A DNA stretch of 47,844 bases, taken from assembly GCA_964525635.1 (NCBI GenBank), contig CAZGJX010000017.1, positions 1-47,844 on the forward strand, written 5' to 3'. Source of the DNA: an uncultured archaeon (GTDB lineage: Archaea; Asgardarchaeota; Lokiarchaeia; Sigyniarchaeales; SOKP01). Shown here piece by piece: positions 5,578-32,197 of this stretch (its first letter is position 1; each line of letters begins with the position of its first letter). The notes below the pieces were generated by a model. The model made no database searches, was not told where the DNA came from, and saw nothing but the letters and a program-made list of their open reading frames with translations. A program made the translations under genes and the position numbers.

Positions 5578-7614
5578 TTAAATGTTGTCCCTATTATGTT
5601 TAATTATGGTTTTTAAGATCATACCATTTTTACATACATATTTGCATATACCAGGACATACATCTGATAGACACATACTTTCATCAATATAATAGACTAA
5701 ATCATTTTTATTTTTCATTACTCCTTCATGATTTATTTCTTTATCATATTTAATATTTATAGCTGGACAACCAAAGAATTCTATACATTCATTACATTTA
5801 TTACACGAAGAAGAGATTGTATAGTAAACATACTGATTTTTATGTAACTCTGATTTGGTCTTTTCTCTTTTAGTACGTCTTGATTTTTCTAAAGCACATT
5901 CTTCATTTATAACAATAACTTTTATTCCTTTTTTTTGAAGGTTTTCATAAAATATTTTTTCCAATTTCTCTAAATTGTATGCTGTGGTTGTTATAAAATT
6001 TTTAAGATTTAGACTTTTTATAATTTTCTCAAGAGATATCTCAAATGTATCCTTATTAGGATCTTTGATAATACTTTTGGGAGTCCCAACATGTTCCTGA
6101 TGGCCTGTCATAGCTGTCCAATAATTATTAAATAGTATTATTGTATAATCCAGATTATTTTTAATTGCCTCTATTATTGGAGGAATTCCACAATGATAAA
6201 AAGTACTATCTCCCATAAAAGCAATAATTTTTTGTTTGGTAGGATCTATCACTTTTACCATCCCATTGGCAATTCCAATACTAGCACCCATACATACAAC
6301 CCAATCCAATAATTGAAATGGATATGCTTCAGATAAAGTAGCACATGATATATCTCCCGAGAAAATAAACTCTATTCCACTTTCATTTTTTATTCGTTCT
6401 ATTGTTTTTTTAAGTATATAAAAAACAGGACGATATGGACATCCAGGACAGAAAGTAGGCTCTCTAATAGGTAAATTAAAAATAATTTTATCGATAATCT
6501 CTTCTTTTTGATTAATATCTGTTAGTATTTTTGTATTTTGAATATTGAAATACTTTGAAATAAATTTAATAATAATTTCTGTATTCAATTCTCCTATATT
6601 GGGCAAAAATTCTTTTCCGTGAATTTTTATGTCTTTCTTATTATATTCATAACATAGTATTTGTCGGACTACTGTTTCAATAAAAGGTTCTAGTTCTTCA
6701 AAAATTAAAAGTGATTTAAGTTCAAATTGATTAACAAAGTCGTAAATGCAATCTTTATTAATAGGATATATTAAACCTAATTTTAAAATGGGAGGATCGA
6801 TTCTTAATTTATAACATGCTTCAATTACATAACTATAACAAATTCCACTCGTAATTATACCTATTTTATTATTCTTTTTATTTTTAATCTGTCTTATATT
6901 ATTAAATAGATGGGATAACTTCTTGTCAGTTTCTATTTCTATAATTTTCTTAAAATATTTTTTTTGATTTGTCAATGCTCTATTTAATGTATTAATATAA
7001 CGATCTGGATCTCTTTCAAAAAATCCTTGTTTTTGAATTTCTGCAACTTTTCCCAATAATAGTATTCCATGACTATGACTTAACCTTGTAGTAAGATGAA
7101 TAATAATTGGGACTCTAAAGGATTCAGAAATTTTTAATCCTTCAATTATAAAATCTTTACATTCTTGAACAGTTGCAGGTTCAAGTATAGGGATTTTTGT
7201 ATGATGAGAATATAATCTATTATCTTGTGCATTTGTTGAAGAATGAATACCAGGATCATCTCCATATAAAATAAGCATACCCCCAACTATTCCCGAATAT
7301 GGGAACGTATGTAAGGGATCTGCGGTAACATTTAGACCAACATGTTTAAACATCACAACTGACCTAGTCCCTGCCCAACTTGCTCCAATACAAGACTCTA
7401 AAGCGACTTTCTCATTAATTGAATAGTTAAAGATAAAATTGTTGGATTTATCTGAAAGATATTTTAGAGAATCTCCCACTTCACTTAATGGAGTTCCAGG
7501 ATAATTTGCAGTGTAATAGACTCCTGCTTCATAAATTCCCCTAGCTAAAGCTTCATTACCACTCAATAATACTTTTTTCCCCGGAGAATTCTCAAATAAA
7601 TCCGACAGATGCAA
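5578..7614 (-). CDS. iorA: Indolepyruvate:ferredoxin oxidoreductase alpha subunit
   Basis: Motifs GNEALARG, YPGTPLSE, KHVGLNV, PTFCPGCPYR and GDSTFYH; C-terminal ferredoxin cysteines. Confidence 0.93.
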   Translation of the reverse strand: MHLSDLFENSPGKKVLLSGNEALARGIYEAGVYYTANYPGTPLSEVGDSLKYLSDKSNNFIFNYSINEKVALESCIGASWAGTRSVVMFKHVGLNVTADPLHTFPYSGIVGGMLILYGDDPGIHSSTNAQDNRLYSHHTKIPILEPATVQECKDFIIEGLKISESFRVPIIIHLTTRLSHSHGILLLGKVAEIQKQGFFERDPDRYINTLNRALTNQKKYFKKIIEIETDKKLSHLFNNIRQIKNKKNNKIGIITSGICYSYVIEACYKLRIDPPILKLGLIYPINKDCIYDFVNQFELKSLLIFEELEPFIETVVRQILCYEYNKKDIKIHGKEFLPNIGELNTEIIIKFISKYFNIQNTKILTDINQKEEIIDKIIFNLPIREPTFCPGCPYRPVFYILKKTIERIKNESGIEFIFSGDISCATLSEAYPFQLLDWVVCMGASIGIANGMVKVIDPTKQKIIAFMGDSTFYHCGIPPIIEAIKNNLDYTIILFNNYWTAMTGHQEHVGTPKSIIKDPNKDTFEISLEKIIKSLNLKNFITTTAYNLEKLEKIFYENLQKKGIKVIVINEECALEKSRRTKREKTKSELHKNQYVYYTISSSCNKCNECIEFFGCPAINIKYDKEINHEGVMKNKNDLVYYIDESMCLSDVCPGICKYVCKNGMILKTIIKHNRDNI

Positions 7615-25339: not shown

Positions 25340-27180
25340 GAATAATGTCGGAGGGTGCAAGACCGTTTTTAACGGATTATATAAGGAAGAAAATATGTTT
25401 CAAAACTATTATCTCTCTGCTTAATTTAATTATATAAAGTAGATTGATGGGCAATTAAATAAAATATTTTCCAATCGTCTAAATTATTTACCGAAAAGAT
25501 TAAATTGGTGTTTACATAATGTTTTATTATAGATCGTTAAAATGACGCATTATGATCATAATTCTATACAAAATTAAGCCCAGTATTTATCAAACTCAAT
25601 TAACGGATTTTATCGGACAGAGGAATGTTGAAAAATATGATATGAATATTCCTAAAGATTATAGAATTGCTCGAAAAAAATTCAAATGGATTCAAATACA
25701 TCCTACGTGGGGGCAGCGTAGAAAGAAAACTAAGAATTTCTCTTCCATGACACAAAAAAAGATTCAAGATTTTATTAATTGGGTTCCTAAAAAACAGGAG
25801 TATTACATTTATCGTTTTCCAAGGGTTAAAATCCCTTGTTTTGAGACTTTTGGAGTAAACACAATCTCAAAAATGGAATGGGATATGCACCGATATCTCA
25901 GATGATTTAATGGGTTCTTTGAAAACTTATTTGAATTTAATGATTTTACATATTTTCAAGACCTACAAGACATTTTAGAGGAAGAAGGAATATCTCTTAA
26001 AAACATGTTTATTGAAGATGTAATTGCGTATGAACTGCTTCGCATAAACTTGGGATTTAAAAATTACAAGGGAATTGAAAAAATGGGACGGTTTATGAGA
26101 TATCCTCCTTTATTCAGTAGAACTCACGATTATGAATTCTTTCCTAATGCCGCTGATCTCAGTTATGTACTAAAAAGAATTCCATCAGAAGCGTTATTTG
26201 AGTTTTTCCAGCTCTTAGTACAAGAATGTGTGGAACATGGAATAATTGTCCCAAGAATTCTAATTTGGGATGGTCAATTCATACGTTCTAATTGTAACAA
26301 TAATAAGCTAAAAAATAATCACGTTTACAATGATCCCGATGCGGGGTATTGCCGTCATAATGGTATTAAGAAGGGTGTAGGGTATGATCCTGGAATATTA
26401 TATGCTCATTGTTTTAATAGATGGTTCCCTATATATTTTAAGATGTTTTCGGGAAATCGGAGTGACATTCTTGCGTTTAAAGAGACCATGACGGAGTTCT
26501 TTCAAACTACTCCATACAAATGGGAGATACTCATAGCAGATTCAGGACCATATTCTCTGCAGAATCTCAAAACCATGCAGCATCGAGGATTAGTACCCAT
26601 TATTCGAGCGAGAAAGCATCTTAAAACCCATCCTATTAAGCAGTTAAAAAAGAATTTCTATTTTAATACCGACTTTATTCCAGAAGGTTGGTCAGATGAA
26701 CTTTTCCTTAAAATATATAGCTTTCGACCAATGATTGAACAAGGAAATTCCTATAATACTACCTATTATAATGCTTCTCGGATGAATACATGGGGAATGG
26801 ACGCAGCAATTAAACTTCGTTCTTTAATTTATATATTAGAACTTTTAAAAGCATTAACAGCTTATAAATTAGGACGCCCAGAGTTGATTATGAAACCTAC
26901 TGCGTTTGAGAACTCACGATATTGTAATTTTCGACTTATGCTTCCGTCTATGGCAAGAGATTCAGGATTTATTTTCTTTAATTCTAAGGAAGAACTCAAC
27001 CGACTAATTAAAAATTTGCATAGAATATAGTTCTCTCACTTAAAAATACACAAATTTATAAAAAAAAATAAAAATGATTAAAGGCAAAATTTACTCAATT
27101 AATTTTCTTTTTTCTTTTCAGTATTTAAGTTTTTATTTATTTTTCTTTTATTTTTTATGGTCAATAAGTCGACATTATTT
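25340..27180 (+). mobile_element. IS element (IS4/IS5-like DDE superfamily); transposase 25552-27030 has an in-frame TGA
   Basis: DDE motifs IWDGQF, IADSG and Y-SF-R-PMI-E. ORFs 25552-25905 and 26005-27030 share a frame. Inverted repeat AATAATGTCG (25341-25350) / CGACATTATT (27170-27179); possible decayed TSD GCATTTCA/GTATTTTA. Confidence 0.75.
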
Positions 27181-27304: not shown

Positions 27305-28656
27305 TTAAAGGAGTGTTTTATTCATTTTCCATGAGTTATAGAGAATTATCCTCGCTAACATGTCTATATAGCGTAAATTATTATGGTTCGACTTCCAACG
27401 ATTATTTATTCGATTTAAGTCGGAAAAGCCAGTTTCAATTAACCATCTTCGATGATAAAGGAGCGAAATACGGGACGCCCAAGAACAGGTATTTCCCTTA
27501 GGATTCTCAGTGATCATTATAGTAATGATTCTATGGTAAGCATCCTTTAAGGTAATCCTTCCCTTCTGAAAGGCTCTCTTAACACCTTGGAGAGTAAAAC
27601 CGCGTTTTGCTTTAATTATCACATAAACATTGGCAAAAAATCGACATTTTGCCTCAGTAGCGCTAGAAAACGTATATTTCCTAACCCGACCCCACTTTCC
27701 TTTGATATAATCTGTAATGAACTAATTGATCTTCTTATATTGCTTTGCAGGGATTAAGGTATCTCCTCCCATTCCTTTAATTTTATCTAAGAACTCAGCT
27801 CGATAGAATTCCCAATCCATCAACACGTAATTTAATTCAAAACCTAAATCAAGCAGATGATCAAGGAATTTAATGATAATTGATATTTTAGATTGACCCT
27901 TTGCTACGTGTTCTAATCCTGCGTAAAGATGAGTTTCACGAGAAAGAATCGAAAATCCCAAGTAATGACGCATCTTTTTTGTGTCCTTTTGCCGATTTGT
28001 TCCTTTAATGAATATATCATCACGTTTTCCATAATATGGATGCTCTATAAAGACAATCAAGACATTGACTTTTTTTGAGATGATATTCCATCTTACAGCG
28101 TTCATTAGTTGAGCATCCAGGCATTCTCGTAAAATACTATGAGCTCTCTGGTATCCTATCTTTCCTAAATACTTGTTAACCTCCGTTTGATGCGGTGTCG
28201 TTCGTCTTTTTCGTCCATCCGCAAATATTCTTTGTCTTCCTCTCCTACTCCCTAAGAAATACTCGTTTAGCATTTTACTGGTATCGTGAATCGACCTACC
28301 TATTATTTCAGAAAAGATGAACACCTTTAGAAAGTCGATATCGTTATATTTCCAATTTCTAGGTTTTTTATACTTCCAGATGCAAGATGTAATTGCATCA
28401 TAAAGCTTTTTAAAAAATGTCAGCATATATTCATTAGAAAGAAGTGATTTAATTCCCAAACTCAGAAATGACTTAGTAAAATTATTTTATATCAGCACAC
28501 ATAAATATTATCACTTTCTTCTATTAAACTTTATGCTAAATGATTTAAAGATGCTAAATAAAGAAAATAATACGCCATATAAATAATATCATTCTAAATT
28601 AAACTATATAAATTTACAGTTCAGCGGGATTCAGACTTTAAAATCCTTTGCTACTG
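27305..28656 (-). mobile_element. ISH3-like IS element with a pseudogenised transposase
   Basis: VLIVFIEHPYYG (first catalytic Asp appears replaced by Val), VLMDWEFY and YHRRWLIETGF. In-frame TAG at 27722-27724 joins the two ORFs. A putative end CAGTAGCAAAGG starts at 28656 on the minus strand; the other end was not found. Confidence 0.7.
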
Positions 28657-28877: not shown

Positions 28878-29867
28878 ATGTTAACTAAAGAAGAAATTCA
28901 AGACGCTCTGAAGGAAAACTGTATTAACCTTCGCTTCCATGCTAGAGGGGGACAAGGGGGAGTAACGGCCTCAAACCTATGTGTCGAAGCTTTTCATGGA
29001 TATGGTGTTTGTCAACCTAGATTTGGTGCTGAAAGAATGGGTAGTCCAACAGAGAGTTATGTAAGGCTAAGTTATAATGATGATTTAGTACGTAATAATG
29101 AGCAAGTTTATGGTCCTCATGCTGTTTCCGTATTGGATTCGTCTCTTCTTGGTGAAATTGATGTAACTGCTGGATTAGCTCCAGGGGGATGGTTAATAGT
29201 TAATACAACAATGGATCAAATATCATTACAAGAAATAGTAGGTAGAGATGATATTAACATTGCTACGATTGATGCATTAAATATTGCTATGGAGATACTA
29301 GGAAGAAATATTACCAATACGATAATTTTGGGCGCTTTAATTCGAGTGCTTCCTATGTTTACTATGGATGCTTTAGCTGATGCAATTATGATGAGATTTA
29401 AAGGTTCAATCGCAGGTAAAAATGTAGAAGCAATAAAAAGAGCTATTGATGATACATGTGTTTATGAAAACTCTAATGCTCCTAAGATAGATTTCTCAAA
29501 AGATACCAAAATTCAATGGCAACAAGTATCTCTTGGTTTACCTGGATATAAGGAATTAGATAAAGCGGGAGTATGGTATTGTGATGAGACTGTTATTGAA
29601 ATGGGAAGTAAATTAGTCAATACAGGTTCATGGGGTGAATGGGATATGATTTGGAATAAAGATACATGTACAGATTGTGCACAATGTTGGTATATATGCC
29701 CTGATTTTGCCATATTGAGAGAAAAAGGTGATGATGGATTATGGCATATGGTAGGAATCGATCAATATCATTGCAAATCATGTCTAAATTGTCTTGAAGT
29801 TTGCCCTGTTAAAGCAATTTCAAAAGAATTAAAACAAGGACCGGCCTCATGTGCCGCTCCACAATAG
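28878..29867 (+). CDS. porCD: Pyruvate/2-ketoisovalerate:ferredoxin oxidoreductase gamma-delta fusion
   Basis: Gamma motifs RFHARGGQGGVT and FGAERMGSP; delta motif NTGSW with CTDCAQCWYICP and CKSCLNCLEVCP. Confidence 0.9.
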   Translation: MLTKEEIQDALKENCINLRFHARGGQGGVTASNLCVEAFHGYGVCQPRFGAERMGSPTESYVRLSYNDDLVRNNEQVYGPHAVSVLDSSLLGEIDVTAGLAPGGWLIVNTTMDQISLQEIVGRDDINIATIDALNIAMEILGRNITNTIILGALIRVLPMFTMDALADAIMMRFKGSIAGKNVEAIKRAIDDTCVYENSNAPKIDFSKDTKIQWQQVSLGLPGYKELDKAGVWYCDETVIEMGSKLVNTGSWGEWDMIWNKDTCTDCAQCWYICPDFAILREKGDDGLWHMVGIDQYHCKSCLNCLEVCPVKAISKELKQGPASCAAPQ

Positions 29868-29880
29868 AAGAGGTAAAAAA

Positions 29881-31110
29881 ATGTCAGTAGAACCAATGAA
29901 ATTATTTTTTAAGGAAATTAAAGAACCTGTCGAAACAGCTATGATTGGAAATTACGCTGTTGCTGGTGGAGTTACTCAAACAGATCCAGATGTTATATGT
30001 GCTTTTCCAATAACGCCTCAAACACAATCTGTTGAGGGATTATCTGATGTAGTACATCAAGGAAGATTGAAAGCTGCCTTCGTCAATGTTGAATCAGAAT
30101 TAGCTGCTATGAGTTATGCTACAGCAGCATGCGCTGCAGGAGCAAGAGCTTTCACAGCTACAGCTAGCCAAGGTTATTTACTAATGGCAGAAGGACTTCC
30201 AATGGCGGTAGGATGGAGATTACCTTTAACGATGATGATTAGTGCAAGAGCTTTTAATGCTCCAAATTTAAGCATATGGAACCAATGGGAATATTGTCAA
30301 GTTAATTCTGAACTTGGTTGGAATATTATTGTATCTGAAAATGTTCAAGAGACTTATGATGCTTCAATTCTTTCAGTAATGATTTCTGAAGATTCGTTAT
30401 TTCCAACTATATTTGTTCATGATGGATTTATCATTTCTCATTCTGTCCAAAAATTAACTTTAATTCCAGATGAAATTGTAAGACGAATGACTCCTAAAAA
30501 ATCTCGACATACAATTGATCCATCAAAACCTGGTGTTTGGGGCGGTATTGTTACTCCTGATTATTTTATGGAAGGAAGAATAAGTCTTGATGAAGCAAAA
30601 AAGCCTGTTCTAGGACAAATGAAATCTACTTTTGATAAATTTAAATCAGAAACTGGGAGAGAGTACAATTTAATTGAAACCTATAATTTAGATAATTCAT
30701 CCAAAACTGCTATTTGTACAATGGGTTCATTGTGTGGTAATGTAATTAGTTGGATGACTAAAAATCAAGATATAGGATTGATTAAAATTCGAGCATATAG
30801 ACCTTTTCCAGTTGAAGAATTACGTAAAATTGTTGAAGAACATAATATTGAAAAGTTGATTCTTTTAGAGAAAAGTGATGCTCTAAATGGAATGCTCCCT
30901 CCTTTTTCAATGTCAGTAGCAACTGCTCTTTATCCTCTTAAAACATTATTTAGAAGCTTTATTGTTGGTTTGGGCGGTCGAGATGTGACGAGAGATGAAT
31001 TTAATATCGCTAAAAAGAAAATGGAAACTGTAACTGATATGAAAGGATCTCTTTATACATATCTTGGAGTTAGAGAAACAAAACAAAAAATAGTAGGAGT
31101 TGATCAATAA
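29881..31110 (+). CDS. porA: Pyruvate/2-ketoisovalerate:ferredoxin oxidoreductase alpha subunit
   Basis: FPITPQT, VESE, TATASQG, DGFIISH and GLGGRDV; ATG 29881 follows SD GAGGT. Confidence 0.92.
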   Translation: MSVEPMKLFFKEIKEPVETAMIGNYAVAGGVTQTDPDVICAFPITPQTQSVEGLSDVVHQGRLKAAFVNVESELAAMSYATAACAAGARAFTATASQGYLLMAEGLPMAVGWRLPLTMMISARAFNAPNLSIWNQWEYCQVNSELGWNIIVSENVQETYDASILSVMISEDSLFPTIFVHDGFIISHSVQKLTLIPDEIVRRMTPKKSRHTIDPSKPGVWGGIVTPDYFMEGRISLDEAKKPVLGQMKSTFDKFKSETGREYNLIETYNLDNSSKTAICTMGSLCGNVISWMTKNQDIGLIKIRAYRPFPVEELRKIVEEHNIEKLILLEKSDALNGMLPPFSMSVATALYPLKTLFRSFIVGLGGRDVTRDEFNIAKKKMETVTDMKGSLYTYLGVRETKQKIVGVDQ

Positions 31111-31111
31111 A

Positions 31112-32197
31112 ATGTCAAAACCAGAGAGAAATGTTATAGATTTTGAAGATGTACTTGCTCGAGATGAAAAATGTAATGTTTTATTTTTCAATTATGATAA
31201 TGAAGCATTCATGAATACTGGAATTCAAGAGTCAGGTTCAACACCTCCATTTGCTAGTACAACAACAGGACCTGCTGGAGAGAAAATACCCGGAAAGATA
31301 GGTGTAAAACAAGATTTAGTCACTCCATTTGCTTTTTACGGAACCAAGAAACTTTTTCTAGCTACTCTCAACCCTGCCTATCCTGCTGATTTTATTGGTA
31401 AGGTGGCAGATGCTTTAAAATCAAATGGTTCAGCTTTTCTGCAAGCTTATTCTGATTGTATGAGAGGTTGGAGACATGGAGCTTCAGCAGCATTACAAAT
31501 ATCAAAATTAGCAACTGATTGTGGATATTGGCCTTTATATACAATTCGCGTTGAAGATGGAATCCCTAAATTCACCTATTACCGAGGATTAGACATTGAT
31601 AAAGATAAATTTGTTGAATATCTTAAATCAATGGGAAAATTCAGCCATCTTTTTAGACCAGAATTTAGAGAAAAAGAAATAGATGAAATTATTTACATGA
31701 CGGAACAGAGAAATAATAAATTAAAAAAGCTTATAGAAATATTCCCAGCAGAAAAACCAATTGAATTTTATAAAGTCAATCGGAAAAAATTGGAACCTCA
31801 AACCCACTTACAACCTGGTCATGGATTATGTCCTGGATGTGGAGCAGGAATGGTTTTAAATCAATTAGCTACAGCAGCTCAAGCAGTTGCTGGGAAAAAT
31901 ATCATTTATGTAAATAATACCAGTTGTTCGGAAGTCTCAACTTCTAAAGATAATTTTACTTCTTGGAACGTTCCTTGGGTTCATCACCTTTTTGAATCTG
32001 GAGCAACCGTAGCAGATGCTATATCAACCACTAAAAAGATTCTAAAAACAAAGGGATTATACAATCAGGATATTCCATATGTTATTCATATTGGTGGAGA
32101 TGGTTCCACTTATGATATTGGATTCCAATTTCTCAAGGCCGCATTAATTAGAACCAGTAGTTTCCTTGAAATGAACGAATATCTAAATATTAAATAA
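31112..32197 (+). CDS. porB: Pyruvate/2-ketoisovalerate:ferredoxin oxidoreductase beta subunit, circularly permuted
   Basis: YDNEAFMNTGIQ lies at the N-terminus, while PGHGLCPGCG, TSCSEV, HHLFE and GGDGSTYDIG lie in the C-terminal part. Confidence 0.9.
   Translation: MSKPERNVIDFEDVLARDEKCNVLFFNYDNEAFMNTGIQESGSTPPFASTTTGPAGEKIPGKIGVKQDLVTPFAFYGTKKLFLATLNPAYPADFIGKVADALKSNGSAFLQAYSDCMRGWRHGASAALQISKLATDCGYWPLYTIRVEDGIPKFTYYRGLDIDKDKFVEYLKSMGKFSHLFRPEFREKEIDEIIYMTEQRNNKLKKLIEIFPAEKPIEFYKVNRKKLEPQTHLQPGHGLCPGCGAGMVLNQLATAAQAVAGKNIIYVNNTSCSEVSTSKDNFTSWNVPWVHHLFESGATVADAISTTKKILKTKGLYNQDIPYVIHIGGDGSTYDIGFQFLKAALIRTSSFLEMNEYLNIK

Follow-up and report, generated by a model that had tools for sequence, protein, structure and literature searches.

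The beta subunit (PorB) of a 2-oxoacid:ferredoxin oxidoreductase (OFOR) from an uncultured archaeon of the Lokiarchaeia is a natural circular permutant in which the two halves of the canonical protein are swapped. Its gene is located in a stretch of DNA of 47,844 nucleotides (contig CAZGJX010000017.1, assembly GCA_964525635.1), here referred to as the window. We give a probability of roughly 85% to the reading that this porB encodes a working, circularly permuted beta subunit of a three-gene OFOR of the pyruvate/2-oxoisovalerate type. A wider reading is favoured by us with considerable reserve. According to it, this permutation would be the first natural one to be described within the pyrophosphate-binding (PP) domain of a ThDP enzyme, with the GDG...N motif split between the chain ends of an active enzyme. 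The permutation would then be a synapomorphy of the Lokiarchaeia, and the protein would belong to the only POR-annotated enzyme of those cultured archaea that are the closest known relatives of eukaryotes.

Segment order of the permuted porB

The permuted porB was found at 31112..32197 on the forward strand as one ORF of 361 amino acids that begins with ATG and is terminated by TAA. The first part of the protein contains the motifs YDNEAFMNTG (starting at aa 28), SDCMRGW (114), YWPLY (139) and GKFSHL (175). These are followed in the second part by PGHGLCPGCG (235), TSCSEV (270), HHLFE (291) and GGDGSTYDIG (328). The order of the motifs by position is the one given in the original prediction, which had been made from the letters of the window. 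Its statements about the surroundings and the integrity of the gene were equally accurate: a single clean ORF, all four Fe-S cysteines (C116, C240, C243 and C272), a Shine-Dalgarno sequence and the normal operon position were all recovered.

Because the halves are swapped, GDG (aa 329-331) and DN (aa 29-30) are situated at opposite ends of the chain. The canonical order CxxC, GDG, DN was present in a PorB from another Asgard class (L027) as well as in a paralog encoded elsewhere in the own genome (G000, contig C22). The contiguous GDG...N element with a spacing of about 25-30 residues, as expected of a member of the PorB family, is absent from the permuted protein.

In total, five segments can be distinguished. 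A new N-terminal extension (aa 1-22; 31112..31177, +) precedes the canonical back half (aa 23-207; 31178..31732, +), which aligns with residues 119-282 of Methanosarcina acetivorans PorB (9bt4 chain C) and with positions 121-297 of a canonical-PorB HMM. The back half carries a strand followed by YDNEAFMNTG (aa 28-37; 31193..31222, +), the half of the ThDP/Mg motif that contains DN (Mg/ThDP ligand side), as well as the cluster ligand C116, WPLY, GKFSHL and the C-terminal helix. A linker of about 16 residues (approximately aa 208-223; 31733..31780, +) connects the old C-terminus with the old N-terminus and lies between the alignment blocks of both the HMM and the PDB chain. It is followed by the canonical front half (aa 224-347; 31781..32152, +), which aligns with 9bt4_C residues 3-115 and HMM positions 4-124. 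Here, PGHGLCPGCG with C240 and C243, TSCSEV with C272, HHLFE and the GDG half of the motif, GGDGSTYDIG (aa 328-337; 32093..32122, +), are located together with the helix that follows. The gene ends with a new C-terminal tail of 14 residues (aa 348-361 plus the stop codon; 32153..32197, +), which in the structural model continues the post-GDG helix.

Separate alignment of the two halves to canonical PorB, which had been put forward as a check, gave clean swapped alignments with both references. With the HMM, built from 60 canonical beta subunits, aa 21-209 of the native protein corresponded to positions 121-297 and aa 224-352 to positions 4-124. In the comparison with 9bt4_C, residues 3-115 aligned to aa 226-347 and residues 119-282 to aa 23-193 (E 2.7e-46). 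When the sequence was rotated at the linker and the extensions were trimmed in silico, a single collinear domain spanning HMM positions 10-297 was obtained with 248 bits. None of the core segments of canonical PorB was missing. The chain is cut between the post-GDG helix and the strand before DN, corresponding to canonical residues ~115 to ~119. Pfam TPP_enzyme_C (PF02775) matched at aa 17-111 with its profile positions 69-150 only, that is with its back half.

Operon context and sequence conservation

The first gene of the operon (28878..29867, +) encodes a fused gamma-delta subunit composed of a POR domain (Pfam POR, 2e-24 at aa 24-190) and two 4Fe-4S ferredoxin motifs (Fer4 families, aa 257-319). 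It matched both the PorC and the PorD families of NCBIfam. The second gene, porA (29851..31110, +), encodes the alpha subunit with the ThDP pyrimidine-binding domain and core domain II (Pfam POR_N, 5.8e-54; PFOR_II, 3.7e-12; NCBIfam PorA_Arch, 294 bits). Its true start may be an ATG about 30 nt inside the listed ORF, which begins with GTG. The porA stop codon (31108-31110) lies 1 nt ahead of the porB ATG, and a Shine-Dalgarno-like GGAG (31096..31099, +) is placed within the 3'-terminal part of porA at a distance of 12 nt from this ATG.

The same junction was found in other genomes. In 13 of 14 loci the porA stop was located 0-3 nt ahead of the permuted porB start, and a Shine-Dalgarno-like motif of the GGAG/GAGG/GGGGTG type was present within the last ~25 nt upstream of porB in all 14. 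The gene order gamma-delta fusion, alpha, permuted beta is shared by the window, Promethearchaeum syntrophicum MK-D1 and the loci L124 and L184. In MK-D1 these genes and a neighbouring histone gene are DSAG12_00810, 00809, 00808 and 00807, respectively. By annotation only, DSAG12_00808-00810 have been listed as POR, EC 1.2.7.1 (Imachi et al., PMC7015854 supplement). The RPKM values reported for MK-D1 are 286 for the permuted beta subunit (DSAG12_00808), 372 for DSAG12_00809 and 314 for DSAG12_00810 (PMC7015854). In sequence records the permuted protein is mostly named 'hypothetical protein' at NCBI, while JGI and KEGG use OFOR/POR beta.

Directly upstream of the operon the window contains two DDE transposase genes (26005-27030, + and 27305-28459, -), the latter of which is split into two ORFs. 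The contigs of many relatives end at or near the por operon. Considering both observations, repeats close to the operon may often break assemblies.

Sequence conservation was analyzed in 106 full-length homologs. Around the GDG half G329, D330, G331, D335 and G337 were invariant, around the DN half Y28, D29, N30, E31, A32, N35, T36, G37 and Q39. The four cysteines of the proximal [4Fe-4S] cluster, representing the CxxC (C240, C243), the TxC (C272) and the distal C (C116), showed no exchange either. Conserved residues were also present in the new segments, namely N7, I9, L15 and R17 in the N-extension and S349, N355, Y357 and L358 in the C-terminal tail. Pairwise dN/dS ranged from 0.03 to 0.10 for the whole permuted gene (ten pairs), from 0.02 to 0.09 for the back half, from 0.025 to 0.09 for the front half, from 0.07 to 0.25 for the N-extension, from 0.12 to 0.47 for the linker and from 0.03 to 0.47 for N-extension, linker and tail together; these figures are rough because dS was saturated (at least 1.2 where computable, with 3 of the 10 pairs not computable). 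These values point to strong purifying selection on the permuted gene across the class.

Five nearly complete genomes of the class without a permuted porB were inspected. In two of these the contig ends right after the orthologous porA. In the other three the orthologous porA was absent too, so that the operon has been lost as a unit.

The original prediction had regarded the protein as a functional natural permutant. This view is supported by the invariant cofactor residues, the signs of purifying selection, the translational coupling to porA, the common loss with it, and the transcription in MK-D1. One could nevertheless think of a decaying relic or pseudogene whose work is done by canonical paralogs, since the source genome carries a further canonical alpha/beta set on contig C22 besides other OFOR alpha genes and since a few broken copies (P0311/P0312, see below) exist. 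However, a relic would hardly be expected to experience strong purifying selection, to keep its ligands invariant and to retain the porA junction throughout the class. Furthermore, it is transcribed at the level of its neighbours in MK-D1 and is lost together with porA, not alone. We consider decay to be very improbable and a working permuted subunit as the better description of this gene.

Predicted fold and role

An AlphaFold2 model of the permuted PorB was calculated from a family alignment of 49 sequences. It had a mean pLDDT of 81 and a pTM of 0.86 and represented a compact single domain. Confidence was low only for aa 32-65, 237-239 and 275-279, which directly follow the DN motif or lie beside the cluster cysteines; their ordering therefore probably depends on the cofactors or the alpha subunit. 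The new segments were modelled as follows: the N-extension as a strand (6-10) and a helix (11-15) with pLDDT 76-96, the linker as the end of a helix (187-210) followed by a strand (212-221) within a block of pLDDT 88-93, and the tail as continuation of the post-GDG helix (338-354), which runs to residue 354 with pLDDT 90-92.

The top matches of the model in Foldseek, with a probability of 1.0, were 9bt4_C, 5exd and 6cip, all of them beta chains of PFOR or oxalate oxidoreductase. Relative to the query, the TM-score did not exceed 0.39, and one half at a time was placed, which is the result expected when sequential aligners are applied to a permutant. VIA-align gave Z-scores of 10.4-12.2 over 157-172 residues for the model residues 19-209 and lower scores over 226-357. 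According to the model the fold of PorB is a PP domain like that of the solved PFOR beta chains.

The fold of the permuted chain would close as in canonical PorB, with the strands ending in GDG (323-329) and DN (23-29) adjacent again. Rossmann-like PP domains bind their cofactor at the C-terminal ends of parallel strands. Both the GDG and the DN strand would present such ends to Mg-ThDP. The helix-to-strand crossover that has been cut would lie at the opposite edge of the sheet, spatially far from the cofactor, and therefore a cut formally inside the motif would be tolerated. The ThDP itself would be bound at the alpha/beta interface as in canonical POR, with the four cysteines serving as ligands of the proximal [4Fe-4S] cluster. 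Electrons would then pass from ThDP via this proximal cluster to the two clusters of the fused ferredoxin-like delta domain. The conserved new termini together with the linker may have a structural role at the alpha/beta interface.

A different possibility is that the protein is functional but its role has changed. It could act on another 2-oxoacid or on oxalate, differ in its subunit interface or its electron partner, or form a new contact via its termini, and would then not simply be the 'POR' of MK-D1. The very long stem branch of the permuted clade (1.58 substitutions per site), the conservation of the new N- and C-terminal segments and the three-subunit layout with fused gamma and delta, as in oxalate oxidoreductase, fit such a change. 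Additionally, the family scores were ambiguous among POR, VOR and OOR. The NCBIfam PorB model NF008819 gave 201 bits in two stretches and did not reach its cutoff of 405, the OOR beta and VOR beta models gave 178 and 170, and likewise each remained below its own cutoff. With these scores the substrate may be that of POR, VOR or OOR. However, the alpha subunit matched best as archaeal PorA (294 bits compared to 139 for OOR alpha), and the nearest canonical relatives of the permuted protein were annotated PorB from Bathyarchaeia and other Asgard classes with 41-47% identity. The motifs of the catalytic site were all unchanged as well. A changed role thus appears unlikely to us, and we would rather retain the assignment as a beta subunit of the pyruvate/2-oxoisovalerate type.

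Distribution, origin and relation to known systems

The permuted porB was present in full length and collinear in 121 of the 151 sampled Lokiarchaeia genomes (~80%); these carriers are distributed over seven families, with identities of 53-92%. Among the 40 nearest relatives about 34 carried full-length collinear homologs; the original prediction had named close relatives that are all canonical as a result that would speak against it, and the opposite was found. Both cultured Lokiarchaeia strains encode the permuted PorB. Closed genomes with the gene are those of P. syntrophicum MK-D1 (NZ_CP042905.2), Ca. Lokiarchaeum ossiferum (CP104013.1) and Ca. Harpocratesius repetitus.

Across other Asgard classes, of which 190 genomes were sampled, the permuted order was not found, with the exception of one contig-end fragment with 89% identity from a genome with 8% contamination. 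The remaining matches in these classes covered one half only with 41-45% identity, which is the pattern of canonical proteins. The earlier suggestion of a possible lineage marker is in agreement with this class-wide distribution. The permuted PorB represents a clean and easily scored molecular marker of the Lokiarchaeia.

Permuted porB genes with 79-89% identity were also present on the contigs L088, L069, L099, L103, L047 and L051 and in genome G315, which are assigned outside of the Lokiarchaeia. Their labels name a bacterium, Nanopelagicaceae, as well as Odin-, Thor-, Hermod- and Hodarchaeota; the remaining case is a genome of another Asgard class with 8% contamination. It is likely that they are mislabelled bins or stray contigs.

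The distribution also bears on the question of an assembly or binning artefact, that is a chimeric ORF derived from misjoined reads of a canonical porB. Such an origin could be suspected from the DDE transposase genes directly upstream and from the many contigs of relatives ending at or near the operon. Nevertheless, more than 120 independent assemblies share this order, as do three closed genomes that different laboratories produced, and the sequences were collinear even at 53% identity. An artefact has a negligible probability in our opinion, and the swapped order is regarded as a natural property of the gene.

When 1.84 billion representatives of protein clusters were searched, 1,312 significant matches were obtained. 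Among the best 150 of these, collinearity with the permuted protein was limited to P0121, which represents the family itself, and to some fragments, and no tandem-fused porB intermediate was present. The candidates P0186, P0265, P0195, P0208, P0218 and P0179 were considered as distant permuted forms and rejected, as they have the canonical order and are frameshifted ORFs or alpha-beta fusions. A putative two-chain form, consisting of the adjacent ORFs P0311 (223 aa) and P0312 (104 aa) of a Helarchaeota-labelled MAG, was dismissed too, since 38 residues including the CxxC are missing. This pair probably represents a copy of the permuted porB that is frameshifted or broken. Finally, an apparent natural alpha-beta fusion with a frame of about 705-715 aa (L184:1115-3232; G060) turned out to contain a run of N's, representing a scaffold gap between porA and porB.

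A maximum-likelihood tree was built from 28 permuted (rotated) and 60 canonical sequences. The permuted proteins formed one clade with an SH-aLRT support of 100, and the length of its stem was 1.58 substitutions per site. The canonical paralogs of Lokiarchaeia were placed elsewhere in the tree, away from this clade. A monophyletic clade on a long stem indicates a single origin, and in the simplest reading the permutation would have arisen once, in or before the ancestor of the Lokiarchaeia. The nearest canonical PorB were those of Altiarchaeales (47% identity, a fused form), Bathyarchaeia (41%) and other Asgard classes (41-45%).

Duplication, fusion and trimming are the textbook route to a circular permutation. 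For porB a tandem duplication, followed by in-frame fusion and the trimming of both ends, would be the most likely route as well. Leftover duplicated segments at the termini were looked for as possible traces of it: in hhalign comparisons with the canonical profile the isolated N-extension and C-tail gave no significant match to the break region, and the anchored N-segment aligned to canonical positions 118-138 only weakly (E about 0.04). A canonical ortholog from before the permutation was also looked for in basal Lokiarchaeial genomes, all of which were 80-85% complete, and this candidate was discarded. G042 and G043 contained only paralogs with 34-36% identity, and G035 and G039 were without a match.

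Among characterized enzymes, the PorB of the four-subunit POR of M. acetivorans (9bt4 chain C) shares with the permuted protein the ThDP/Mg residues, the positions of the four cysteines, the operon partners and, according to Foldseek and VIA-align, the fold. The permuted PorB differs from it in the swapped order, the 22-aa N-extension, the linker of ~16 aa and the 14-aa C-tail, and gamma and delta are fused in the source archaeon. The second-best match in sequence and structure was the oxalate oxidoreductase of Moorella thermoacetica (5c4i, 5exd, 5exe; E 3.5e-41, Z 10.4). This enzyme likewise consists of three chains and has domains III and V on one subunit. Its beta subunit, however, is collinear whereas the permuted PorB is not, and the alpha and gamma-delta subunits of the source archaeon score far better as POR than as OOR.

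Within the own genome, the canonical paralog of the POR/VOR type on contig C22 (310 aa) belongs to the same family, has the same motifs and is adjacent to an alpha subunit as well. In contrast to the permuted PorB, with which it shares 32-36% identity, it is collinear and is found elsewhere in the tree. The source genome contains five POR_N-bearing genes in total. In the window, a further ORF of 678 aa (5578-7614, -) has a POR_N match at 6886-7539 and looks like the alpha subunit of an indolepyruvate-type OFOR.

Rearranged or split connectivity is tolerated elsewhere in the ThDP superfamily. Groups of ThDP enzymes differ in the order of whole domains, PP-PYR or PYR-PP (bioRxiv 10.1101/2021.03.21.436335), and transketolase encoded by a split gene is a ThDP enzyme in separate chains (PMC7661550). 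In these cases, though, whole domains are moved or separated and GDG...N stays contiguous, whereas the permuted PorB is cut inside the PP domain. The GDG...N motif has been described as strictly maintained and as one contiguous element (bioRxiv 10.1101/2021.03.21.436335). The permuted PorB would be a natural experiment demonstrating that this motif can be assembled from two chain termini, from which both enzyme engineering and family models based on motifs can profit. In a full-text literature search, with subscription journals outside its coverage, no paper on a permutation of PorB was found.

2-Oxoacid:ferredoxin oxidoreductases have been proposed as core energy-yielding enzymes of Lokiarchaeia (PMC7015854). 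In the set listed there as POR, the beta subunit has a chain topology that had gone unrecognized. The label 'hypothetical protein' at NCBI results from this, and automated metabolic reconstructions can therefore miss the permuted PorB.

Two kinds of insertions into porB genes were observed in addition. In 4 of 161 genomes of the class, belonging to three genera, the permuted porB carried an insert of 30 or 31 nt exactly between the NTG and IQ codons. These were G002 (31 nt; L089:4110-4145, corresponding to G002:C127:47956-48006), G011 (30 nt; L200:350-384), G133 (30 nt; L201:330-364) and G142 (30 nt; L203:279-313). Each of the 30-nt inserts brings in a TGA in frame, and the reading frame is disrupted by the one of 31 nt. 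Reading the TGA of G011, G133 and G142 as selenocysteine was rejected because it lies inside the insert and not at a Cys position. The porB of the source archaeon itself is free of an insert.

The inserts have a shape similar to a bulge-helix-bulge, in which CUGG of the exon pairs with NCAG at the 3' end of the insert and 3-nt bulges lie on either side. The three 30-nt inserts share an inner helix of 9 bp, with compensatory changes on both sides of four pairs between genomes, while the inner helix of the 31-nt insert of G002 consists of 2 bp, a 1-nt bulge and a 7-bp stem. Pairing of exon with exon in the outer helix is weak. Cuts after the second nucleotide of each bulge, placed by hand, remove exactly 30 or 31 nt and restore T-G-I-Q-E. 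The insert is probably a mini-intron of the tRNA type located in an mRNA.

The second kind was present in a metagenomic PorB-like protein of 413 aa (P0199). Its first ~215 residues resemble a homing endonuclease or intein remnant, and the PorB sequence resumes at '...DIGLQALSG...YDNEAYMNTG'. This arrangement suggests that an intein was inserted into a canonical PorB right at its GDG motif.
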